The position numbers were made by a program, and so were the translations under genes. 64,000 nt of DNA from a virus. The DNA lies in IMG/VR virus record IMGVR_UViG_3300009001_000006, positions 49,833 to 113,832 of that record; one strand, given 5' to 3'. Each line of letters opens with the position of its first letter. Positions within the stretch are counted from its first letter, which is position 1. Shown one piece after another: positions 3,734-63,704 of the stretch. The notes beneath the pieces are model-generated. The model had not been told where the DNA came from and ran no database searches. It saw only the letters and a program-made list of their open reading frames with translations.

Positions 3734-4836
3734 AAAATATTCTATATATAGGACCATACAGAGAAAATACTGGTCTTGGTAGATCAGCTAGAAGATATGT
3801 CGATGCTTTAGGTTATAATCTAGATATTAATTTATCTATAAGGCCGATATATTTTACCCCATATCTAGATCATGGTAATGAGGCCGGAAAAGACTATAAC
3901 GAATTTGAAGAAAATAGTAGTGCTTCCTATGATATGGTAATACAACATGGCTACCCAAATTGTTTCGAATATAGGTATGATTTTGGTGAAAATATAGGAA
4001 TAGCAGAAGTAGATACATATGGTATAGGGCATACGGGATGGATTGAGCGCATGAATATGATGGATCGCATCATAACTCCATCTAATTGGTCTAAATCCTC
4101 TATAATGGACGCAGGCTGTAACACACCGGTGCAAGTACTACCAGAACCATTTGATCTTACTAAATTTGATCAAGATTATGAGCCTATGTTTAGCGATAAG
4201 AATAATGATTTTATTTTTTATTATATCGCAAAACATCAGGACAAAAATAATATCAAAGCATTGCTCGCGGCCTTTTTATTAGAGTTTCGCAAACACGACG
4301 ATGTTAAATTAGTGATAAAAACAGATATTAATGGTTTCGATAATCAAGAGTCTGAACATATTGTGGCTTACGATATACAACAGGTAGAGAGAGCCCTTAG
4401 AATTAATGGAAAAAATATACAAGTTCCTAAGGTCATCATTGGTTATTACGAGCAAGAGTATATGTTGAGATTACATAACCAATGCGACTGCTATGTGGAT
4501 GTGTGCAGAGCTGAAGCTTTTGGTGCTTCATCAATTGAATCTATGCTTTTTGGTAATGCTACTATTGTCAATAAAGATACTGGTCCAAATACTTATATCA
4601 ATAATAAAAACGGGTGGGAAATAGACAGTATTCTAACCAATGTATATAGCAAAGACTTTTATATGGAAAATACATTTACCATATATGAAAAATGGAAAGA
4701 GCCATTTCTAGACTCCATCAGAACAAATATGAGATCGGCTTATGAGTCAACACAACAAGAAAGAAAGAACAAAATAAACAATTTTAATAAACAAATTTTT
4801 TCAGAGGAGTCTTTCACTAAGGCTTTATTTCAATGA
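3730..4836 (+). CDS. GT-B (GT4-like) glycosyltransferase
   Basis: ILYIGPY..TGLG; CDCYVDVCRAEAFGASSIESMLFG (EX7E motif); ATGA-type overlap with the upstream gene. Confidence 0.85.
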   Translation: MKNILYIGPYRENTGLGRSARRYVDALGYNLDINLSIRPIYFTPYLDHGNEAGKDYNEFEENSSASYDMVIQHGYPNCFEYRYDFGENIGIAEVDTYGIGHTGWIERMNMMDRIITPSNWSKSSIMDAGCNTPVQVLPEPFDLTKFDQDYEPMFSDKNNDFIFYYIAKHQDKNNIKALLAAFLLEFRKHDDVKLVIKTDINGFDNQESEHIVAYDIQQVERALRINGKNIQVPKVIIGYYEQEYMLRLHNQCDCYVDVCRAEAFGASSIESMLFGNATIVNKDTGPNTYINNKNGWEIDSILTNVYSKDFYMENTFTIYEKWKEPFLDSIRTNMRSAYESTQQERKNKINNFNKQIFSEESFTKALFQ

Positions 4837-6695: not shown

Positions 6696-7489
6696 TGATA
6701 AAAGAATATAATAAATTAAATGAACCACAAAAACAAAAATTAATACAAGAACTGTATGTTCAGGATAATAAAAGTTTCCAAGCTATTGCTAAAGAATATA
6801 ATACATATCCGAACAAAATACTTAGGGACGCTAAAAAATTTAATATACCTATCAAAAATAAATCACAAGCACAAAAGAATGCTTTAAAAAAGGGCGTTAT
6901 TAAGCACCCAACAAAAGGTAGGAGTAGGACACAGGACGAGAAAAATAAAATCGGACTAGGTGTCTTAAATACATGGTCTAAGGCTGATGAAAAAACAAAG
7001 AATAAAAAGAAAGATCAAGCTAAAAAACTATGGGACAAAAAAACAGAAGATGAGCGGAACCAAATGCTACAAAAAGCTAATTACGCCGTAAGGGAAAGTA
7101 GCAAAAAAGGGTCCAAGATGGAGCATTTTATTTTAAATTTTTTGGTAGATAATGGTATAAAGGTAGATTTCCATAAAGAGCAATTCTTAGTAAATACCAA
7201 ATTGCAAATAGACCTGTTTTTACCTAAGATAAACGTAGCAATAGAAGTAGATGGCCCATCGCACTTTGAGTCTGTGTGGGGAGAAGAAGTACTTCAAAGA
7301 AACATAGCTTATGATGCAAAGAAAACAGGTTTGATTATTGGTAAAGGATATAAACTAATTAGGGTAAAACAAAAAAGGGATTTCTCAAATACAAGAGCTA
7401 AAATTGTATGCGATAAAATATTGAGTGTAATTAATAATATAGAAAATAACAGCAACAAAGTTACAGAAATAGAGGACAATAATGCCTAG
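6695..7489 (+). CDS. Vsr/DUF559-like endonuclease with basic NUMOD-like DNA-binding region
   Basis: C-terminal KLQIDLFLPKINVAIEVDGPSHF...GYKLIRV; N-terminal HTH and KGRSRTQDEKNKIG NUMOD3-like segment. Confidence 0.75.
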   Translation: MIKEYNKLNEPQKQKLIQELYVQDNKSFQAIAKEYNTYPNKILRDAKKFNIPIKNKSQAQKNALKKGVIKHPTKGRSRTQDEKNKIGLGVLNTWSKADEKTKNKKKDQAKKLWDKKTEDERNQMLQKANYAVRESSKKGSKMEHFILNFLVDNGIKVDFHKEQFLVNTKLQIDLFLPKINVAIEVDGPSHFESVWGEEVLQRNIAYDAKKTGLIIGKGYKLIRVKQKRDFSNTRAKIVCDKILSVINNIENNSNKVTEIEDNNA

Positions 7490-8213
7490 ACCCAAAAAAA
7501 CACAAACAACAGAAACACAGACAGAAGTTAAGGAACAAGGCCAACAATATACGATATGGGATATTGAATGGACAGATTATGTGTTGTCTTTGCTCTCAGA
7601 AGATGAAAAAATTCAAGGCAATCCAACTACAGACGGTTTGAGACGGGTTTTTGAAAAAGCCTTAAACTGCGTACTAGTAGAATCAACATCTGATGTGGTG
7701 CAATCCCCCTGCCCAACCAATGAGAAAAGAGCCACTGTGGTACATTCTCTGAGCTATATTTTAAAAGATATACCCCAAGATAGCCCATTTAATACTATCA
7801 CGGTAAATGGAGCCGCAGACGTTTATTGGGGTAATTGTGACAAGGTGTTCAGGAATCATCCTGTAGCCGTAGCTGAGACTAGGGCAGAGGGTAGGGCTTT
7901 AAGAAGAGCCTTAAGGCTACGTAAAGTACTAGCTGCTGAAGAAGTAGTAGATAGTACAGAAGATGATATTGGTGCTGATAATGTGACCAAAATTACTAAT
8001 AATCAAATTAATTTTATAGACGTCATTGCCAAAAGATTAGATATAAATGTATTATCTATTATTAAAAATCTAGGTATAAATGAAGATAATGTAAAAAACA
8101 TATTGCATGAAGATGCCTTAAGGGTTATTAGAGAGTTATCTTCGTATCAACAAAAAGTAGATGATATACCAGAAGATATTAAAGGTTACGTCAACAACTG
8201 GAGCTTATTATGA
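7482..8213 (+). CDS. putative Rad52/Sak-like single-strand annealing protein
   Basis: GAAD...HPVAVAETRAEGRALRRALRL resembles the Rad52-superfamily helix motif; C-terminal KITNNQINFI linker domain; replication context. Confidence 0.5.
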   Translation: MPRPKKTQTTETQTEVKEQGQQYTIWDIEWTDYVLSLLSEDEKIQGNPTTDGLRRVFEKALNCVLVESTSDVVQSPCPTNEKRATVVHSLSYILKDIPQDSPFNTITVNGAADVYWGNCDKVFRNHPVAVAETRAEGRALRRALRLRKVLAAEEVVDSTEDDIGADNVTKITNNQINFIDVIAKRLDINVLSIIKNLGINEDNVKNILHEDALRVIRELSSYQQKVDDIPEDIKGYVNNWSLL

Positions 8214-8533: not shown

Positions 8534-11500
8534 TTATTGATTTTCGTAAAAATTAGGCGGCGGAGTATAGCATTCTACTATATCCTCCCACATTAAACAA
8601 TCAGGGCCCTGTGTTTCAGACTTATGAACCAGGGCTTGATGCTTGCCTTCTTTATAACCTTTTAGTGTTTGTAAACACTCAAGATTACACCAGCAACTTG
8701 TTGGTGTCGGTATGGTTGGTTGAGATACGGCTGGGGTAGCTGTTGTTGTTGGACAGCAAACCTCATTAGGGTCTTTATATGCTCTGCTACTTTCTAGAAC
8801 AATATATCTATTATCATCATAATAAGCATATACTGTATCACATTTACAAAGCTCTATGCCTAAATAATCATATATTTTAATTTTTGCTTTTTCAATAGAT
8901 TTTTTAACATTCTTACCATCCTTATCCCAAATATCATAATATTCATAAAAACTTACCCCACCACCATCGGGATTAATTAATTCTGCCTCAACAACACCAT
9001 ATTTCGCTAAATTGCCTAGTAATCTTGCTACCACAATCTTATTAGCTGGCGGAGCTACCCAAACTCCTCTTTCTCTATCCCATCGTAAATCTATCGGACC
9101 AGCAGGCCATGTTTTAGGATTTTCTAGCCAATTTTTGAGGAATTTATCTTGTAGACCTTTTCTTCTAAATTTACCCTGCTCTGTTTCAGCTGCTGAGTCA
9201 ATAGCATTAGGTATGGGCTTTCCAGAAGTATCATAACCCCAAGCCTGTAAACTTAAAGGACCTCTTAAAATATTATACCTAAAGTTTTCAGATGCTTGTC
9301 TATTTCGTTCATCTTCGTCTAAATGTGTTAATTTATAATCTTCGTCAGTACCCCAACTAATAACATTGCAAATAAATCCTTTAAAGCTATTGTTTTGTCT
9401 GCCATCCCAATTATTCAACATTGCTTCAGAGGTTACGGCATTTAAATACTGTTGATGAACCGCTAGGTCATATGTTAATTCAGAGTCTAAAAGAAAGGGT
9501 GGAATTTCGTTTCTAGGTCTAGAATTGGGTGGTTTACCGGGCGTACTGTCCTCTGGTTTTTGTCCATACTCCATAATTCCACAATCATAATCCTGATACA
9601 TAGCTAGTCGTGGTAATTGATATTCATCGTCACCTTCTTGATTGGTGCTGATGGGTGTAAATATCAAATCCAAAGTAGAAATAGCATGTCTTTTAAAGGT
9701 ATTTTTTTTAACGTGTTCCCAGGTATATCCTTTTTCAAGCTCTAATTTAGGTCTATTTTTCAAAATATTACCGGTAGAAGCACTAGATCCACCACCTAGA
9801 TCTGGTGGTGGTATATATGGCTTACATGGTCTACAACCTCTTTCGAGGCCCTTCGAACCATCATGACAATCTGTGCCCCCACTAGCATTGGTATCTTTAC
9901 TTCTCATGAAAAATGAGCCAATTAATATTAAACCTGGACTTGTTCCAGAACCTTGTGTATTACCTCCACCATCATTTTGTGTAACTACCCCAGCAGTACC
10001 TGGTATCTGAAAACTTTGCGTAGATGCATCTTGCAGAGCCGTATCAGTGCTATTGATAAGTTTCTGTAATTCTAAACTTTGATCCTTGAAGAATTTATTA
10101 ATATAAGACATCGACTGATAGCTTTTAGACCACAAATCAGCCAATGCTCTACCAGGACTACCAAACTTTGGAGTATAAGTTTGAAAATTATAAGTAGTAG
10201 TATACCCACCTTCACCAATATTAATATTTATATCAGTAAGAGTAGCAGCATTAGTGCCGACCATATAGCCTATATTGTAAGATGGTAGGGCAGCAACAGT
10301 AACCGAGCCCTTTTCTTGTTTTTGCAATCCTCTAGGACCATCAGCAGCAATTAAATTGCCATACTGATTCATTCTTGCATAGCCATCGTCAAAACCATTT
10401 GTAAATTTCCATGGACACAATTCTTTATTATTTTCATATATCGTTCCACCAACAGGATTGCTCACAAAACTCCAAGGACCATAAACAAAAAGATTGCTTC
10501 TCATAGGAAGTATAAAATGATCTGGAACAACACATGGTCTATGGCTTTTTAAGACATTAAAAGCACTAGTGTTAGTAGGAGCACCATCATTTCGATCTTG
10601 GGGATCATCACAAAATATATCCTGTAAAGCCTCCATTCTTGACTGGTCAGTATTACCATCAAAAAGAGTCATCATAGCCACAGCGCCTTGGCTAATTAAA
10701 TTCTGATCACATAATTTACCATCTGCTTGTAATCTTAATCTTGGTGGCCCACTAACACTCACTCTAACATACTGCTTGCCATCGACTTGATAAATAGCCT
10801 CTGTTGTCGATGACTTTAGGTATAATGATTGAGCCTTGGTGTAAAAAGCCTCATCGCTACAACTACTAAGTTCAACCTCCCAGGTATTATCTAATTTATT
10901 GATATTTTTTCTTTCATCTATCTTAACAAAGGGGCCTATTCGATTGTCTGATTCATGAAATAAAAGAGTTTCTGGACCTATAGTAAGTCCCAATATTTGA
11001 TTTGCACCAGGATTAGGCCATCCACCAGCAGATGATGGCATATCAGAAGTGTAAAATAAACCACCAGGTTCTGCTTTTAAATTAAATGCTGGTTTATTGC
11101 CAAACTTATCTTTAATACAAATACCCGAATTCTGATCGCCAACCTGTACAAGATACTCTCTGCCATAATATTTATCATGAATATTTTTTAACCAATTAAA
11201 AGCTTCTTGTAGTTTAGGCATAATTTCTTTACGATTATTTCGCACCAATTGATTCATATGCTCATTAACGCTTTGAGCTGTACGATTCTCTGCGAAATTT
11301 GTTAAAAAGTCAGCAACATTATCTCTTAATTTTGCCATATCAAAACCCAAAGCACTCATAACCTTATAACCAAAAGTAAGCTGACCAGTACCAGCTTCTC
11401 CTACATACATGCACCATGTTTGATATGAAGCTGTAGCTAATAACTCTTTTTCTGTAAGCTCGAACGACGTAAAGTTATTGGCTATACCTAAAGCCTCGCA

Positions 11501-48787: not shown

Positions 48788-49598
48788 CTTGATTCTTTAG
48801 TACTGATTCCGCATTTAATATAGGTGTATCAAATTCATTATCTTGATATTGGTGTGGTGATTGTAAATCATCTTTAAATTTACTGGTAGCCATCTTTAGA
48901 ATTTCTAACTGGCGGCCTTCTTTTTCTCTGATGTCTTCATCTTCCAGCATCCTAATTAATCCTGTCCAACTGCTTTTGCCATCTTCAATCCTTTTAATTC
49001 TTTGTTCTCTAGTAGCTTTTAAATCTTTACTAATTTTTTGCTGTTCACTTAATAATTTGGTATATTCATTAGTATAGCTAGCGATACTATTTCTAGCAAA
49101 ACTTAATTGTGTTTCAAGATTTGCTAGCTTAGCGGTGTCTCTATCAGATTCTGGCATTTCATACTCAAAGTCTACCTGCCTTTGTAATTTTTCGGTTTCT
49201 GCAATATGTCTTTTACGCTCTTTCATACTTCTGTTAATAAGAATATCTATTGTAATAAACTGTTTAATTTGTAACTCTTCTGCTGGAAGAACATCTTCAC
49301 GAAATTGTTTAATAAGATTAATCCATGTATTTTCGAAATAATCTAATTCGCCAGTCTCTTTATCAAACTGCTTACATACCTCACCCCAAAAAGATTTAGA
49401 TCTAAGTTTAATACTTAAGATTTCATTATCAGCATGCTCTGCTGGTGTTTGCAGCAACTGATTTTTTTCTATGTATTTTTTAATAGGAGCTACATTTCTA
49501 TTTAAACTAACTGCTATATCTTCTATACTTGAAGAATTAGCATTTTCTTTAATGTACTTTTCTTCCTGTAGCGAAAGCTGTCCTCTTTTTTTAGTCAT
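48780..49598 (-). CDS. HTH/coiled-coil protein, candidate terminase small subunit
   Basis: N-terminal SIEDIAVSLNRN HTH, long coiled coil, upstream of TerL. Confidence 0.45.
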   Translation of the reverse strand: MTKKRGQLSLQEEKYIKENANSSSIEDIAVSLNRNVAPIKKYIEKNQLLQTPAEHADNEILSIKLRSKSFWGEVCKQFDKETGELDYFENTWINLIKQFREDVLPAEELQIKQFITIDILINRSMKERKRHIAETEKLQRQVDFEYEMPESDRDTAKLANLETQLSFARNSIASYTNEYTKLLSEQQKISKDLKATREQRIKRIEDGKSSWTGLIRMLEDEDIREKEGRQLEILKMATSKFKDDLQSPHQYQDNEFDTPILNAESVLKNQDE

Positions 49599-50241
49599 TT
49601 TTATATTTGGGTATGAGTTTCTTTTTAATAAAATTCTGTAACTTTACTTTATCGTTTTTTATGACCTTTTGTCCGTGTTTTAATTTTAGGTATGTGCTTC
49701 TGTATTTTACTGGTAAATTTTCTTCTATAAAATCGACTAGTTGCTGGTCTGATATATGATCCACAAAATCTTTAGTATTCGCTGGGTCTATATTGTCTAT
49801 ATAAGATGGTTGAATAATTCCTTTTTTGTTATTATTTCTGTTAAACCAAGATCTATAAGCATGACAGTTGAATTTATCGTTAAACTCTTCACAATCCTTA
49901 CCGTCTTTATTTTTAGGATTATATAATGGGCAAGTTAAGCAAGGTTTGTCTGGACGCTGATAATTATCTCTCTTATAATTAAAAAGCCTATTTCTTACAT
50001 GTGTCCACAAAAAATTCTCTAACGGTCTAGAGTGATCATATTTTTCTAATCCTTCAAGAGCAAAAATCGCTGCTTGTTGCTTCATATCATTAATATCATG
50101 ATAAGCAAACTTGAATTTATAACAGAGTCTTTTGCTTATATTGTCTAAAACAGCTAGAAACTCTTCTTCTGTTACATTTACTTTATTCTGTATTTTCTTC
50201 GTTGTTTTTTTCGTTGTTTTTTTCGGAATTTTCTTCCTCAT
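49591..50241 (-). CDS. phage RNA polymerase sigma factor-like protein
   Basis: Region 2 signature DMKQQAAIFALEGLEKYD..RPLENFLWTHVRNRLFNYKRD; Cys cluster insert; short C-terminus. Confidence 0.75.
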   Translation of the reverse strand: MRKKIPKKTTKKTTKKIQNKVNVTEEEFLAVLDNISKRLCYKFKFAYHDINDMKQQAAIFALEGLEKYDHSRPLENFLWTHVRNRLFNYKRDNYQRPDKPCLTCPLYNPKNKDGKDCEEFNDKFNCHAYRSWFNRNNNKKGIIQPSYIDNIDPANTKDFVDHISDQQLVDFIEENLPVKYRSTYLKLKHGQKVIKNDKVKLQNFIKKKLIPKYKND

Positions 50242-58569: not shown

Positions 58570-58615
58570 AATAAGCCTGTAGTTTGTGGTTGTGTTCTGC
58601 TTTGTCTATTATAGG

Positions 58616-58623
58616 TATACACT
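58616..58623 (-). promoter_or_regulatory. putative late promoter motif AGTGTATA heading the Cys-rich array
   Basis: 47 nt upstream of the start at 58569. Confidence 0.6.
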
Positions 58624-58645
58624 ATTTTTATACAAAAGGGCGTTG

Positions 58646-60103
58646 ATGATGACTAAGCAAATATTAACTATGGACCAGGTGGAAAAATATGAAAAAATCT
58701 ATTTTGGGTCAAAAGAAAAGATTAGTGGGATTTACGGAATTGTTTTTTATAGAAATGATGTTAATGGTGTGAAAATTTATATTGGAAATAGTATTGATAT
58801 TATAGCTAGATGTAAAGAACATGTTAGGAATTTGACTGGTACTTCTGGACGGAAAATTAATAAAACTTCGAAAAAGTTAATACAGTGTTATAAGAATAAA
58901 AATTATAAGATGGTTTTTGTGGTATTGGAACGATGTAATGAAAATGTGGTCATGAGCAAAGAACGTGAATATCAGCATAAGTGGGTGAAGCGGAATTTAT
59001 TAAATAATTGGGTGGCATCTAATATAGATGAAATTAAGCCATGGTTAGATAAATGTATTAAAAGTAAAGCCTATACAAAACATTTTAAATATAGTGAAAA
59101 GAATTTTTATAATGGTACTCCTTGTAAGGAAAGTCTTAGTGTAAGTTCAGGCGGATATGCTAGAATTCAGGTTCGTATTAATAGCAAAGACAAACATATA
59201 TTTAAGCATAGAGCAGCTTATTACGAAAAGCACAATGAATATCCAGAATTAGTTCGTCATTTATGTAATAATAGATGTTGTTATAATCCTGATCATTTAA
59301 CATCTGGAAATTATAGTGAAAATAGTTTAGATAAAAGAGGGGATTTTCCAGAAAGATTTGAAAAAGATTGGGTGAGGCTGGAAGGTGACGCAGATAAGTT
59401 AACAACATTATATGGATGGAAAAGAAATTGTACACGAAAAGGGGTTCGCATATCAGCGACAGTTTATCGATGGGAAAAGAAATTAGGATTAAGAGATAAT
59501 TATCCTGATATTTACTATAACAAAAGAGCTATGCGAACAAAGTTGTGGAGAAGAAAAGATATACAGGAATTTATACAGAATTGTGGGGATAAGTATGGAA
59601 ACAGTAATGTAAAAATAGCTAAGGCATTAAATACGGAATATGGATTAGAACTAACACCTCGGCAATTAAGCCAAATGAAAAATAAGATGAAGGGCAAATC
59701 AAGAAATAGAAAAAGAGTAAAGAATGCGGATCTGACAGGGGCGACTAGTGTGATAAAAGAATACTATCAGTCAAAGACAGATGAAGAAATTAAAGATATA
59801 TGCAATGCCAAATTAGGTACTTCATATCAAACGGGCACAATAAGAGCAATGAGATTTGATTTAAGTTTATATAAGCCTCAAATGATTCAAGACAAGGTGG
59901 GGGATTTATACAGAAGAGATGCTGTATCTAGGTGGGGGATAGAGGCGGAAAAGTTAGTGGAATATTTTGGGGAAGAGTATTCAGATGGGGAATTAGCAAA
60001 GATATGTAATAGGGAGTATGGGGAAGATATGGGGTTTGATGAGGGGGTGATTCAAGAACTAAGGCAGCTAGTAGGATCTGGGGATACTGTGGGGCAAACT
60101 TGA
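58646..60103 (+). CDS. GIY-YIG plus HNH dual-domain homing endonuclease-like protein
   Basis: SGIYGI...KIYIGNS..I.AR...H...E...E (GIY-YIG) and HRAAY...VRHLCNNRCCYNPDHL..GNYSEN (HNH). An ATG start at ~58646 is preferred. Confidence 0.85.
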   Translation: MMTKQILTMDQVEKYEKIYFGSKEKISGIYGIVFYRNDVNGVKIYIGNSIDIIARCKEHVRNLTGTSGRKINKTSKKLIQCYKNKNYKMVFVVLERCNENVVMSKEREYQHKWVKRNLLNNWVASNIDEIKPWLDKCIKSKAYTKHFKYSEKNFYNGTPCKESLSVSSGGYARIQVRINSKDKHIFKHRAAYYEKHNEYPELVRHLCNNRCCYNPDHLTSGNYSENSLDKRGDFPERFEKDWVRLEGDADKLTTLYGWKRNCTRKGVRISATVYRWEKKLGLRDNYPDIYYNKRAMRTKLWRRKDIQEFIQNCGDKYGNSNVKIAKALNTEYGLELTPRQLSQMKNKMKGKSRNRKRVKNADLTGATSVIKEYYQSKTDEEIKDICNAKLGTSYQTGTIRAMRFDLSLYKPQMIQDKVGDLYRRDAVSRWGIEAEKLVEYFGEEYSDGELAKICNREYGEDMGFDEGVIQELRQLVGSGDTVGQT

Positions 60104-60226: not shown

Positions 60227-60428
60227 TGTAAGGTATTGATAGATATAGACTTGCGTGTATGTCTGCCGACCGGCCCCCTCTTTGGTGGGGTAATAAAAGA
60301 AAAAACTTTTGGCATGATATTTGCACTAGAAAAAAATAAAAAAATTTTTCAGAAAGTACTTGACACCTGACGATACTAGGTATATACTTGAGACATAACA
60401 AGTAACCAAGAAAGAAAAGGAAAAAGAC
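60227..60428 (+). repeat. composite intergenic cassette 1
   Basis: 11-7-11 palindrome 60227-60255; CCCC-N8-GGGG 60275-60290; sigma54 motif 60309-60325 (+); TTGACA-17-TATACT 60360-60388; purine-rich leader. Confidence 0.8.
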
Positions 60429-60620
60429 ATGAAAAAGCTCATCCCCTACTTCGAAGCAAACGGCGTTCGGTACACTATCCTCAATAAGATGCGAATCTTT
60501 CTTTCGCAGAACAATCAAGTTCTTGCTGTTCAATCAGCAGATACCTTTCCTGCTAAGGTTTCACAAGATCCACTCTTGGTCCGCTTTTGGCAGAACGAAC
60601 TGAATCGAGAATATGCTTGA
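60429..60620 (+). CDS. small early-type hypothetical protein
   Basis: AAGGA RBS after the cassette 1 promoter. Confidence 0.75.
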   Translation: MKKLIPYFEANGVRYTILNKMRIFLSQNNQVLAVQSADTFPAKVSQDPLLVRFWQNELNREYA

Positions 60621-60666
60621 CCCCATATTGGAGTAGATCTATCCCCCAAAAGAATTGCTAGCCAAA

Positions 60667-60901
60667 GGTAAGTGCTTGGTAAATAAAGACTTACAAGCGA
60701 TTCGACCGGCCGGCCCCCTCTGTGGTGGGGGTGTACAAGTGTTCCACTAGCAAACGCTGTGCCAAACGAGAGCAAAATGCCAGAAAGTTTTGTCAAATTT
60801 TCTTGACATAAAAATTCCAAAATTATTGTTGACGACTAAAGATTGCTTTGGTATAATGTCGATATAAGGAATAAGGAAAAGAAAACTAAGGAGAAATAAA
60901 A
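60667..60901 (+). repeat. composite intergenic cassette 2
   Basis: Palindrome 60667-60695; CCGGCCGG; CCCC-N8-GGGG; sigma54 motif 60749-60765 (-); TGTCAA-N6-TTGACA; TTGACG-17-TATAAT 60829-60857; AAGGAG. Confidence 0.9.
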
Positions 60902-61048
60902 ATGGAAATGCAAATCCTCTACATTTCAGATTGCTGCGGTTCATATCTTGACGATTGCCATATCGAATATGGTATCTGCAACGATTGCGGTGAGCATTGT
61001 GAAGTGCTGACCGAAGAATATCCTGCTACCCCCGTTTGTGGGGGTTGA
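60902..61048 (+). CDS. 48-aa Zn-finger-like protein (SDCC...ICxxCGEHC), not in the ORF track
   Basis: MEMQILYISDCCGSYLDDCHIEYGICNDCGEHCEVLTEEYPATPVCGG*; AAGGAG RBS; paralogue of 62715-62921. Confidence 0.85.
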   Translation: MEMQILYISDCCGSYLDDCHIEYGICNDCGEHCEVLTEEYPATPVCGG

Positions 61049-61072
61049 CAACACAAAAAAATTTGCTAGACT
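61030..61072 (+). promoter_or_regulatory. mini-cassette: CCCC-N8-GGGG fused to a sigma70 promoter
   Basis: CCCCGTTTGTGGGGG then TTGACA-16-TAGACT. Confidence 0.7.
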
Positions 61073-61096
61073 TTGGATAACTAAGGAGAAAACAAA

Positions 61097-61276
61097 ATGA
61101 CGATTTACCCAAGTATGAACGACTACCGCAAGTATTTCAACACCATGACAACCGATCTTCTTTCGGTATGGGTTGAGGTTGCAGAACATAAACTGCCGAA
61201 CTATACTAGGATCGAGGAGGTCGAAACCGTAAAGGCCGCTCTAATCGTAGCCCGTCAAGTATTGTCCACCCGATAG
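61097..61276 (+). CDS. 59-aa protein (LSVWVEVAEHKLPNY family), not in the ORF track
   Basis: AAGGAG RBS; paralogue of 62059-62256. Confidence 0.85.
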   Translation: MTIYPSMNDYRKYFNTMTTDLLSVWVEVAEHKLPNYTRIEEVETVKAALIVARQVLSTR

Positions 61277-61288
61277 GAAACCGAAAGA

Positions 61289-61579
61289 ATGAATACTGAA
61301 AAACTCATGCAACAATACCCGATTCTCACTGACGCTTGGAATCAGTGTACCCTAATCTGGAAAGGTGTTGAGCAGAACGGAACGGTTCACAAGTTCAATC
61401 GAAAAGAATTGAGAAAAATTGTAAAGGCTAACCGTCGGTCGGTCGATAAGAGACTGGTGGGCGGGAATGACCACATGATTGAAAAGGTAGGAAAGCCTGG
61501 CTCCCCCGAAAGAGTGGTTGCGTTGGCTGCCCAATATGCTAGACTGAGTGAAAGCGAATCGTCACCCTTTGGAGAATGA
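61289..61579 (+). CDS. hypothetical protein
   Basis: AGGA RBS; co-oriented with its neighbours. Confidence 0.75.
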   Translation: MNTEKLMQQYPILTDAWNQCTLIWKGVEQNGTVHKFNRKELRKIVKANRRSVDKRLVGGNDHMIEKVGKPGSPERVVALAAQYARLSESESSPFGE

Positions 61580-61583
61580 TAGA

Positions 61584-61820
61584 ATGACAACCTACGAAAA
61601 AATGACAACGCGAGAACTTGACGCTTGGATCCGGGAAGGCGGGAAAGACTTGAGCGATAATGCTCAAACGTACACCCCAGCAAAGTATAGGCTGGTGGCC
61701 CATATGGTACGCTCTGCCGTTCGTGAGAGGCTGCGACGACTTCGCCATGCCGACTGGCTGGAGAAGGAATACGCTTGGGAAACTGAACGGGCGATCAGGG
61801 GTGGTACAGGGTGGAGTTGA
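61584..61820 (+). CDS. hypothetical protein (MTTYEKMTTRELDAW...)
   Basis: ATG at 61584 after GGAG; ends just before cassette 3. Confidence 0.7.
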   Translation: MTTYEKMTTRELDAWIREGGKDLSDNAQTYTPAKYRLVAHMVRSAVRERLRRLRHADWLEKEYAWETERAIRGGTGWS

Positions 61821-61841
61821 TCCCTCATTAGGGTGGGCGTT

Positions 61842-62058
61842 CGTAAGTTGTTGCTACGTAAGGACTTACGGCCTGCCCGGCCGGCCGAACCCCACTTGCG
61901 AGGGGTATTAGCAAATGCCGTGCCAAAAGCACACAAAATACCAGAAAGTTTTGTCAAATTTTCTTGACATAAAAATGCAGAAAAATCTCTTGACAATTCA
62001 AGTTTCGTATGGTAGAATGTCGATATAAGAAGTAAGAGAGAAAGAAAGAGAGAAAAAA
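61842..62058 (+). repeat. composite intergenic cassette 3
   Basis: Palindrome CGTAAGTTGTT-GCTACGT-AAGGACTTACG 61842-61870; CCCGGCCGGCCG; CCCC-N8-GGGG; sigma54 motif 61910-61926 (-); block near-identical to cassette 2; TTGACA-17-TAGAAT 61990-62018. Confidence 0.9.
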
Positions 62059-62256
62059 ATGACAACGCTACAAGCACAATACAACAGTCTTCAAGAGCAA
62101 TTCCACAAGATGAGCAATGAAATGCTCTCAGTGTGGATTGAAGTAGCAGAACACAAACTGCCAAACTATCGCCGAACCGAAGAGATGCTGTCGGTTCTCA
62201 ATGGCATCCACGCTGCCAAGAGTGTTCAACGCTATCGAGAAAATAATTGGGAGTGA
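62059..62256 (+). CDS. 65-aa protein (LSVWIEVAEHKLPNY family)
   Basis: First gene after the cassette 3 promoter. Confidence 0.85.
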   Translation: MTTLQAQYNSLQEQFHKMSNEMLSVWIEVAEHKLPNYRRTEEMLSVLNGIHAAKSVQRYRENNWE

Positions 62257-62257
62257 T

Positions 62258-62300
62258 CCCCCAGCGGCGGGGTTGACAAACAGAAAATCTTTGGTATAAT
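62258..62300 (+). promoter_or_regulatory. mini-cassette: C-tract/G-tract box fused to a sigma70 promoter
   Basis: CCCCCAGCGGCGGGG then TTGACA-16-TATAAT (62273-62300) with extended TG. Confidence 0.75.
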
Positions 62301-62319
62301 GTCTGAAAAGAAAGAGAGA

Positions 62320-62520
62320 ATGAGAATGAGAAAGCCTAGTTTCAAGACCGTTGAGAAGAATCTGGTACAGTATGCTAGAAAGATGGATTGCGAAATCGTC
62401 AAACACCACGACGGTTCCTATTCACTGTACGATCGTAAAATGGATTATGTATCCATTACCAAAGCAACTCGACAGCGTGTTGCAAACGAAGTTTACTATT
62501 GGATGAGTGCTAGTAAGTAA
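62320..62520 (+). CDS. hypothetical protein
   Basis: Start downstream of the -10 box (ATG at 62320 or 62326). Confidence 0.7.
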   Translation: MRMRKPSFKTVEKNLVQYARKMDCEIVKHHDGSYSLYDRKMDYVSITKATRQRVANEVYYWMSASK

Positions 62521-62541
62521 GTAAGAGAGAGAGTGAAAGAG

Positions 62542-62718
62542 ATGAGTAAGTATCAAATGTTCAGTACCTATCGTCGCTATGCTGGCGGTTATTTTGAATG
62601 CTACAAGAAAGATGAGTATCTTGGCAACGTGTACGCTAGTACAGAGAAGGCTGCAAGGTATAAAGCCTTCAAGTTGTTTGGTGTTTGGTGCAATGTTTAT
62701 TGGCAAGATGGAGAATGA
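62542..62718 (+). CDS. hypothetical protein
   Basis: MSKYQMFSTY...YLGNVYASTEKAARYKAFKLFG. Confidence 0.7.
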   Translation: MSKYQMFSTYRRYAGGYFECYKKDEYLGNVYASTEKAARYKAFKLFGVWCNVYWQDGE

Positions 62719-62921
62719 AAATGGGAATGATGATTCAAAGCGACTGTTGCAACGAGCCAATGAGTGGCTCACAAATTGACCACGAAATTTGCCCAAAGTG
62801 TGGCGAACACTGCACCGTGGTGTTTGATCGTAGCGAAGAACGAATTGTTAGTTTTGCCCAACAGCGTCGTGCTGAACGGCTTAGGAAATGGAGCAAGAAT
62901 GAAAATGAAAACAGGCTATAA
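62715..62921 (+). CDS. Zn-finger-like protein (SDCC...ICPKCGEHC)
   Basis: ATGA overlap with the previous gene; paralogue of 60902-61048. Confidence 0.8.
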   Translation: MKMGMMIQSDCCNEPMSGSQIDHEICPKCGEHCTVVFDRSEERIVSFAQQRRAERLRKWSKNENENRL

Positions 62922-63129
62922 TAATTTTGAAGAAGCAATGATTTCTATGCTAACAAAAAAACAAAAAGAAAAACTATTAGATATAGCAAGGAATACTAAT
63001 ATAGGTACGGAATACTCAGAACAGTTTGGGGGAATAGCATTAGCCTGTTTGGCTGGAAAGATTGAAAAAAGTTTGACAGGTAAGAATGGAACAAACTGGT
63101 TTGAAGTTCTTTCGGAGAATAGAAAATGA
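62899..63129 (+). CDS. hypothetical protein
   Basis: GGAG RBS before MKMKTGYNNF. Confidence 0.6.
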   Translation: MKMKTGYNNFEEAMISMLTKKQKEKLLDIARNTNIGTEYSEQFGGIALACLAGKIEKSLTGKNGTNWFEVLSENRK

Positions 63130-63215
63130 AAAGTAAACTTAACAATGACGGCCTGGCTGTTATGCTCTTTCTTATGGTGTGTGTTGTGGTAATATTTATA
63201 GAAAGATTGGTGTAA
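63126..63215 (+). CDS. 29-aa single-TM peptide
   Basis: MKSKLNNDGLAVMLFLMVCVVVIFIERLV*; ATGA overlap; GGAG upstream. Confidence 0.55.
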   Translation: MKSKLNNDGLAVMLFLMVCVVVIFIERLV

Positions 63216-63222
63216 GGAATAG

Positions 63223-63398
63223 CCCCCTCTTTGGTGGGGCCCGGCCGGCCGAGTCGGCCATAAGTCCTTACGCCCCAACGACTTACGATCGCAGAGCAAA
63301 TGCTGTGCCAAAAAAGAAAATAATTTTTTCTAGATTTTTCTCTTGACATTCAAGTTTGCTGTGGTAGAATTCCGATATAGAAAGTAAGGAGAACAAAA
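63223..63398 (+). repeat. composite intergenic cassette 4 (left part inverted relative to cassette 3)
   Basis: CCCC-N8-GGGG, CCCGGCCGGCCG, palindrome 63259-63287 in reverse orientation, sigma54 motif 63295-63311 (-), TTGACA-16-TAGAAT 63343-63370, AAGGAG. Confidence 0.9.
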
Positions 63399-63704
63399 AT
63401 GAAAGCACACAACCCACGAATCATTTGCCGCGACGGCTTCTCAATCAGTGTTCAGGCCCGTGAGACTGCATACTGCACACCACGAAGCGACCACGGCCCA
63501 TACTCGCATGTAGAGTGTGGATACCCTAGCGAGGTTCCAAAAAGTTGGAGATTCCGGGAATTCTCGGAAGCCGCCCAATTTGGCAAGGGTTAGCCAAAGG
63601 ATGAAGAATACACCGACACGGTATATCCGTATGTTCCTGTTCATCTGGTTCGGCATGAGTTGGATCTGCACGGTGGAATTGTTGAAGGAAGGTTGCCAGA
63701 ATAG
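63399..63704 (+). pseudogene. conserved small phage gene (DGFSISVQA...TVYPYVP...HGG) interrupted by an in-frame TAG at 63591-63593
   Basis: The frame continues past the TAG as PKDEEYTDTVYPYVPVHLVRHELDLHGGIVEGRLPE*. Confidence 0.7.

Follow-up and report, generated by a model that had tools for sequence, protein, structure and literature searches.

Sigma-54-type sites in the early gene cassettes of an uncultured phage clade: candidate docking points for a host RNA polymerase holoenzyme

What might a phage do with sequence elements in its early region that look like binding sites for its host's sigma-54-containing holoenzyme of RNA polymerase (Eσ54), an enzyme that binds its sites tightly and stays silent until an ATPase acts? 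The question is raised by a 64,000-nt stretch of viral DNA (positions 49,833 to 113,832 of IMG/VR record IMGVR_UViG_3300009001_000006), here called the window, which is the final 64 kb of a 113,832-bp linear phage contig with a CheckV completeness of 79%, the end of the window being the end of the contig. An initial annotation of the window had drawn attention to four motifs of the sigma-54 -24/-12 type, mostly antisense to the surrounding small genes, and had proposed that they could serve as decoys, roadblocks or drivers of antisense RNAs. Here we examine how far these motifs are conserved in related phages, what is likely to read them, and whether they would act by firing or simply by being occupied.

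Sigma-54-type sites in the window and in related phages

All four motifs lie at the positions and on the strands at which they had been reported. Site A (60309-60325, plus strand, TTGGCATGATATTTGCA) is sense with the genes, and its GC is 36 nt upstream of the -35 element of a sigma-70-type promoter. Sites B (60749-60765, TTGGCACAGCGTTTGCT), C (61910-61926, TTGGCACGGCATTTGCT) and E (63295-63311, TTGGCACAGCATTTGCT; 47 nt from the site start to the -35) are on the minus strand and antisense to the genes, which run on the plus strand, in accordance with the description of the motifs as mostly antisense. Every one of them reads TGGCAY-N5-TTGC with the GG-N10-GC spacing. Site B is identical in the relatives L023 and L058/L062 (throughout, L numbers denote related IMG/VR loci and G numbers related phage genomes).

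The pattern TGGCA-N6-TTGC matches the window five times, against 0.51 matches expected from dinucleotide shuffles, and none of 100 shuffles reached five. Four of the five matches fall within ∼3 kb, in the last 4 kb of the contig; the fifth (10347, minus strand) is intragenic and looks like a chance match, and the rest of the 113,832-bp contig outside the window holds no further one. Measured against the RpoN promoter consensus of Geobacter sulfurreducens, TTGGCACGGTTTTTGCT (PMC2725144), the window sites agree at up to 15 of 17 positions (the 61910-61926 site). The four copies are not independent of one another, because cassettes B and C form a 149-nt duplication with 76% identity, and independent support comes from the relatives.

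Such relatives are numerous in environmental DNA. Exact copies of the 18-mer AGCAAAYGCYGTGCCAAA occur in 55 stretches of IMG/VR DNA, about half of them with the same context (a GTAAG palindrome before the site and a TTGACA promoter after it), and additional sites are often close by. Nucleotide identity to the close relatives L023 and L058 is 89-95%. The window terminase shares 68-69% identity with its counterparts in G001, G002 and G004, 53% with those in G006 and G007, and at most 29% with that of any isolate (Bacillus and Clostridium phages). Neither megablast of the region nor blastn of a site array found a close relative among isolates. These genomes make up a single clade of uncultured phages, 130-205 kb in size, several of them with terminal repeats. 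Across 547 kb of related IMG/VR loci we counted 164 unique sites, all clustered in early zones, with a single zone of ∼5 kb per genome (nine of ten sites in G002, 10 in G005, five each in G003 and G004, and four in G001); a reversed-pattern control had no match in any relative genome. In four more distant contigs with the same 18-mer (L005, L011, L018 and L031), paired CTGCCAAAATGGCAG palindromes with TGCCA/TGGCA half-sites stand directly beside the sigma-54-type site.

To see which positions are held constant, we freed one motif element at a time while keeping the remaining pattern fixed. Under this masking, GG was retained in 107 of 107 sites, CA in 107 of 107 and GC in 107 of 109, and the GG-N10-GC spacing was found in 107 sites against none at six other spacings. 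The position after TGGCA is C (81) or T (26) and the next one A (55) or G (52), with no other base at either, and the base after GC (n = 112) is T in 98, A in 9, G in 4 and C in 1, that is, W in 107 of 112. Among the unconstrained flanks, TT is favoured before TGG, and T precedes TTGC in 107 of 127 sites (75-97% by subset). A strong T-tract, which the phage sites possess, is linked to tight closed-complex formation. The sites agree with the extended consensus TGGCAC(G/A)-N4-TTGC(A/T), and the two subtypes into which the sites fall, TGGCACRGCATTTGCT and TGGCATGAWAWTTGCA, have only the sigma-54 consensus positions in common.

The same positions are kept when homologous sites are aligned. The 60309 site differs from its L062 homologue at 4605 only at the Y position and one flank base, the 63295-63311 site from its L062 homologue at 8894 by one spacer base, and the 61910-61926 site from its L062 homologue at 7656 at Y, three spacer bases and the flanks. 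Homologous sites in the window and in L023, L058 and L062 thus drift only at positions that sigma-54 does not read. The initial annotation had tied its proposal to conservation of the GG and GC dinucleotides in homologous cassettes, where we find both, together with their spacing, essentially invariant. Sigma-54 has been described as contacting the GG, the A:T pair at -23 and the -12/-11 region (PMC3844500).

When 185,579 species genomes were searched for the motif with TTGAC after it, four matches were obtained, all of them in ordinary bacterial DNA and none in a phage cassette. This search did turn up the identical 18-mer in metagenome-assembled genomes of Methylococcales, Woeseiaceae, Sphingomonadaceae and Desulfobacteraceae, and in the first three it stands upstream of a gene on the motif's own strand, the ordinary position of a sigma-54 promoter. 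We consider it likely, from the sequence of the sites, that Eσ54 is what reads them.

Orientation, spacing and possible modes of action

Orientation was scored relative to gene direction as defined by nearby sigma-70-type promoters. By this measure 51 of the 164 clade sites are sense and 75 antisense, with 38 unclassified; all five sites of G004 are sense, and G001 has two of each. Orientation varies even between homologous cassettes: those of G004 share the TGTCAA-N6-TTGACA palindrome and promoter of window cassettes B and C, but their sites point the opposite way, and one of them carries an additional, decayed second site. This agrees with the view of the initial annotation that variable orientation fits a binding role better than a promoter role.

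Where sites stand close together, their spacings fall into discrete classes. Face-to-face neighbours are 20 bp apart in eight of ten pairs, back-to-back pairs are separated by 22-24 bp (12 pairs) or 31-33 bp (six pairs), and tandem pairs by 26-27 or 35-39 bp. Two holoenzymes cannot both sit or fire at a 20-bp face-to-face pair, because each site lies in the initial transcribed region of the other. The position of the site within the cassette is constant, always between the hairpin module and the next promoter. Sense sites have the sigma-70 -35 ∼50 nt downstream of the site start, and antisense sites preferentially have a divergent sigma-70 -35 40-59 nt upstream. Fixed phasing with the sigma-70 promoter was nevertheless rejected, since the window has distances of 47, 79 and 79 nt and those of relatives range from 47 to 79 nt; this same spread argues against the sites tuning the sigma-70 promoter by direct contact.

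That a clade of large environmental phages has recruited host Eσ54 through conserved -24/-12 sites, either as silent boundary and capture elements or as promoters gated by a host ATPase, seems to us only slightly short of evenly balanced. Within this, we tentatively favour the reading that the sites are host Eσ54 docking sites in mobile early cassettes resembling promoter early stem-loops (PeSLs) and that they act mainly by occupancy, which the sequence features make plausible rather than probable. Host Eσ54 would dock at the cassette site as a stable, silent closed complex, and the main effect would come from its presence, whichever way the site points. Once docked, the complex would set off one early transcription unit from the next and insulate the two at their boundary, a point at which a search of the cassettes found no canonical intrinsic terminator. 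As phage DNA replicates, the growing number of sites would capture more of the scarce sigma-54 holoenzyme, and activator-driven firing may occur on top of occupancy. We favour occupancy over firing because orientation flips, because paired sites can be mutually exclusive, because the sites lie between hairpin and promoter where there is no canonical terminator, and because no activator gene was found. In bacteria, Eσ54 binds in a stable, transcriptionally inactive state at many sites, including intragenic and antisense ones (PMC3844500; PMC4591121).

Several points weigh against occupancy by Eσ54. The identity of the reader is deduced from sequence; a closed complex may or may not be an effective roadblock; and 4-12 sites per genome would make a small sponge until the genome has replicated. 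Part of the conservation is also a matter of ascertainment, because the retrieval pattern fixed one site per locus; the non-seed sites, which outnumber the seed sites by about 2:1, obey the same rules. Three salt-marsh metatranscriptome runs contain contigs of relatives over parts of 59.8-64 kb, some of them spanning a cassette (61775-61970 and 63115-63362), but they bear on no model, because they give no strand, start or level and are possibly derived from DNA.

The main rival is that the sites are working, activator-dependent sigma-54 promoters, which we regard as possible but doubtful. Sense sites would then offer the early cassettes a further route of expression, gated by a signal and in tandem with the sigma-70 promoter. 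Antisense sites, which stand back to back with that promoter, would send transcription into the preceding unit and lower that unit's output through antisense RNA or colliding polymerases. The activator would be a host enhancer-binding protein, possibly acting from solution, or a phage protein that escaped recognition. This would account for the completeness of the match to the promoter consensus, in which the -11 W and the T-tract are also present, and for the divergent -35 at 40-59 nt from the antisense sites, which is the layout of a divergent promoter pair. The five sense sites of G004 also fit it, each being upstream of a cassette with a predicted start ∼25-37 nt before the sigma-70 -35, although a short hairpin with a T-run after it lies at that predicted start and would tend to halt the transcript. 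Moreover, the two members of a 20-bp convergent pair cannot both initiate, and orientation flips between homologous cassettes, with three of the four window sites and 75 of the 126 classified clade sites pointing away from the genes. Nor do the would-be antisense products give a fold or family signal: the RNAs predicted from the minus strand show no better folding than shuffles (z = -0.6 to -1.7), and the region has no Rfam match at E ≤ 1.

For firing, the sites would also need an activator, and no gene for one was found in nine relatives that are at least 94% complete. Neither the contig nor 29 related records, among them these nine (completeness by CheckV), contain the sigma-54 interaction domain PF00158; a single weak match in G002 turned out to be RuvB and not an activator. 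Domains of sigma-54 itself are likewise missing: PF04552 was not found in the contig or in four relatives, nor was PF04963 in the contig or in two complete relatives, and a six-frame translation of the contig contains neither an RpoN-box nor a GAFTGA motif. No recurrent element that could act as an enhancer was identified at 80-150 bp. In favour of the promoter reading, an enhancer-binding protein that lacks a DNA-binding domain is able to activate whatever closed complex is present (PMC3844500).

Another reader altogether, either an early DNA-binding protein of the phage or a host factor, could instead recognise two TKGCA half-sites one helical turn apart, the likeness to sigma-54 being convergent and the 20-23 bp arrays being operator-like cooperative sites that control early promoters. 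We think this unlikely. The start-to-start spacings of 20-24 bp do resemble operator arrays, the indifference to orientation suits such a protein, the early-region ORFans (including two Cys-rich, zinc-ribbon-like paralogues) could bind DNA, and the evidence for sigma-54 is not direct. On the other hand, asymmetric sites such as these are unusual for dimeric repressors, and the sigma-54 consensus is matched in at least nine separate features (among them the strict spacing and the Y, R and W positions), a coincidence that an unrelated protein would be unlikely to produce. A phage-encoded candidate is present in the late block, where a 216-amino-acid protein (49591-50241, minus strand) has a weak Sigma70_r2 match just under the Pfam cut-off (E = 5e-5). 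This protein is probably the clade's own late sigma factor, and it is an unlikely reader of the sites, whose 4-nt gap between elements is unlike -35/-10 recognition. We also set aside a T4 MotA-box-like middle promoter, a pac or cos site, replication iterons and a homing-endonuclease target, because the motif recurs in each composite cassette over 3-5 kb, has no -10 at the MotA distance and matches sigma-54 position by position.

That the motif has no reader and is a passenger of a recombination-spread cassette, at most a homology patch for cassette shuffling, is very improbable: it would suit the duplication of cassettes B and C, the contig joints at repeated segments (60779 to 61941) and the mosaic BLAST similarity among relatives, but a passenger should decay evenly. 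Here spacer and flanks vary, whereas more than 100 sites, from phages with terminases 53-69% identical, show no variation in GG, CA, GC or the spacing, and the motif persists where the surrounding modules differ or invert.

Cassette anatomy, neighbouring genes and shuffling

The sites are embedded in composite cassettes with a fixed order in gene direction: a hairpin and GC-box module, one or more sigma-54-type sites, a near-consensus sigma-70 promoter, and small ORFans. The structured module has three pieces, a GTAAG...CTTAC palindrome of ∼27 nt, a CCGGCCGG box and a CCCC-loop-GGGG hairpin, and it occurs in both orientations. The repeated modules belong to repeat families D1-D12, in which a stem-loop stands just upstream of a sigma-70-like promoter, a Shine-Dalgarno sequence and a start codon. 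Together the cassettes serve a block of small plus-strand ORFan genes of 48-96 amino acids (60429-63593), which contains six plus-strand sigma-70-type promoters with scores of 10-12 of 12.

In cassette A, the module (60228-60290; families D2 and D9) consists of an imperfect GTAAG...CTT palindrome, CCGGCC and the CCCCCTCTTTGGTGGGG hairpin, and the early promoter (60360-60388, plus strand) is TTGACA-17-TATACT, with a score of 11/12. Cassette B has a module at 60668-60731 (D2, D9 and D12) with a GTAAGTGCTT-N7-AAAGACTTAC palindrome, the CCGGCCGG box and CCCCCTCTGTGGTGGGGG, followed beyond its site by a TGTCAA-N6-TTGACA palindrome (60790-60808) and a plus-strand promoter, TTGACG-17-TATAAT with a TG extension (60829-60857). 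The corresponding parts of cassette C are a module at 61843-61905 (D2 and D12; GTAAG palindrome, CCGGCCGGCC and CCCCACTTGCGAGGGG), whose plus strand folds with z = -2.55, the same palindrome at 61951-61969 and the plus-strand promoter TTGACA-17-TAGAAT (61990-62018). Cassette E pairs a module at 63223-63287 with a TTGACA-16-TAGAAT promoter (63343-63370, plus strand), and its module is inverted relative to that of cassette C (inverted repeat I1; 69 nt, 78% complementary).

The initial annotation had placed a motif in every cassette. This holds for the composite cassettes, four of four of which carry a site, but not for all promoters of the block: two simple internal sigma-70-type promoters on the plus strand, both near-consensus, have none. 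One of them (61045-61072) lies behind a CCCCC..GGGGG hairpin, and the other (62273-62300), a 12/12 match, has only a short hairpin.

The pieces of the cassettes are shuffled independently of one another, because the E module (63224-63292) is inverted relative to the C module while the orientation of the site stays the same. Inversion of site and hairpin module as a unit was accordingly rejected: 63224-63292 is inverted with respect to 61837-61905, and the site orientation is kept. The palindromes at 60790-60808 and 61951-61969 form an exact 19-nt repeat, which is also present in the G004 cassettes (L063, ∼7070-7090, minus strand) and may represent either an operator or two overlapping -35-like hexamers. 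Just before the promoter, relatives have a second short hairpin, CCTTAC-N6-GTAAGG, with a T-run after it. Many early promoters of L060, L061, L063 and L064 also have a conserved CGATAA or CCGATA in the spacer between -35 and -10 (for example TTGACATTGGACGATAATTATGGTATAAT), which is not a sigma-70 requirement.

Gene direction switches at 58.6 kb, from the minus strand, with the terminase and tail genes, to the plus strand. A gene for an HNH endonuclease of 505 amino acids (58586-60103, plus strand) sits at this switch, directly before cassette A. The ORFans of the block have no significant family in Pfam or PHROG, the two sub-threshold matches obtained both falling on 62715-62921. Two plus-strand pairs of early micro-proteins are paralogous, 61097-61276/62059-62256 (43% identity) and 60902-61048/62715-62921 (42%); the second pair is Cys-rich (CC...C...CxxCxxxC) and resembles small zinc ribbons, and neither pair has a significant family match. 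The G+C content of the early cassette zone (60.1-64.0 kb) is 43-44%, compared with 28-42% (mostly 33-39%) elsewhere in the window, which fits an early zone that evolves separately and recombines.

Near-identical DNA occurs in soil metagenomes, and relatives sharing ∼40% of sampled words occur in salt-marsh, freshwater and estuary metagenomes. An ESM Atlas look-up of a DnaE fragment returned only viral clusters, with no host signal. The salt-marsh contigs join cassettes at repeats, with skips of 1161, 1016, 401 and 914 bp as well as back-joins, and the joint from 60779 to 61941 skips exactly one 1161-bp B-to-C repeat unit. By BLAST, the window region shows mosaic similarity to L023, L058 and L041. 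Cassette order and content differ among related populations, which fits cassette shuffling.

Comparison with known systems

Phage takeover of host transcription is known through sigma-70, phage sigma factors, phage polymerases and modifiers of the host enzyme (AsiA/MotA, Gp2). The initial annotation had called sigma-54 promoters rarely described in lytic phages, lytic growth of this phage being an assumption, and our literature search found no description of such sites in phage genomes or of the use of sigma-54 by phages. If the proposal made here is true, these phages would have a regulatory layer based on host sigma-54 for which we found no published description. As boundaries or sinks, the sites would insulate early genes and shut off the host in a new way; as signal-gated promoters, they would couple the onset of infection to nitrogen, envelope or motility signals in the host. 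Each site is a short, defined and conserved sequence, and sigma-54 is conserved enough for gel-shift and in-vitro transcription tests without the native host. The motif also offers a simple marker of the early region in this clade of uncultured phages.

Bacterial sigma-54 -24/-12 promoters, such as those of Geobacter sulfurreducens (PMC2725144) and the Salmonella regulon (PMC3844500), share with the phage sites the pattern TTGGCAYR-N3-TTTGCW, with GG and GC exactly 10 nt apart. Unlike them, the phage sites stand at the boundaries of early cassettes in either orientation, often stacked face to face at 20-23 bp, and beside strong sigma-70 promoters, with no activator gene or recognisable enhancer found.

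The cassettes themselves are closest to the PeSLs of T4-type phages, in which a stem-loop combined with an early sigma-70 promoter mediates the modular shuffling of small genes (PMC2839356; PMC4122927). In both, a repeated intergenic stem-loop lies directly upstream of a near-consensus sigma-70 promoter, a Shine-Dalgarno sequence and a start codon, and the window cassettes likewise occupy a zone of small ORFans and are associated with gene units being gained, lost or exchanged between close relatives. The differences are that PeSLs as described lack a -24/-12 element, that the structured part of the window cassettes is a three-piece, invertible module, and that the window phage is not of the T4 type, as its terminase (at most 29% identical to those of isolates) and an open reading frame of 4356 amino acids indicate.

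In their indifference to the direction of the downstream gene, the phage sites most resemble the intragenic and antisense Eσ54 sites mapped by chromatin immunoprecipitation in Escherichia coli and Salmonella (PMC4591121; PMC3844500), for which transcriptional interference, antisense RNA or silent binding has been proposed. Those bacterial sites, however, lie inside genes and deviate from the consensus at -23 and -11, whereas the phage sites are intergenic, near-consensus, clustered and conserved across a clade. Features added by the phage sites are that orientation flips from one homologous cassette to another and that paired sites have quantised spacings.

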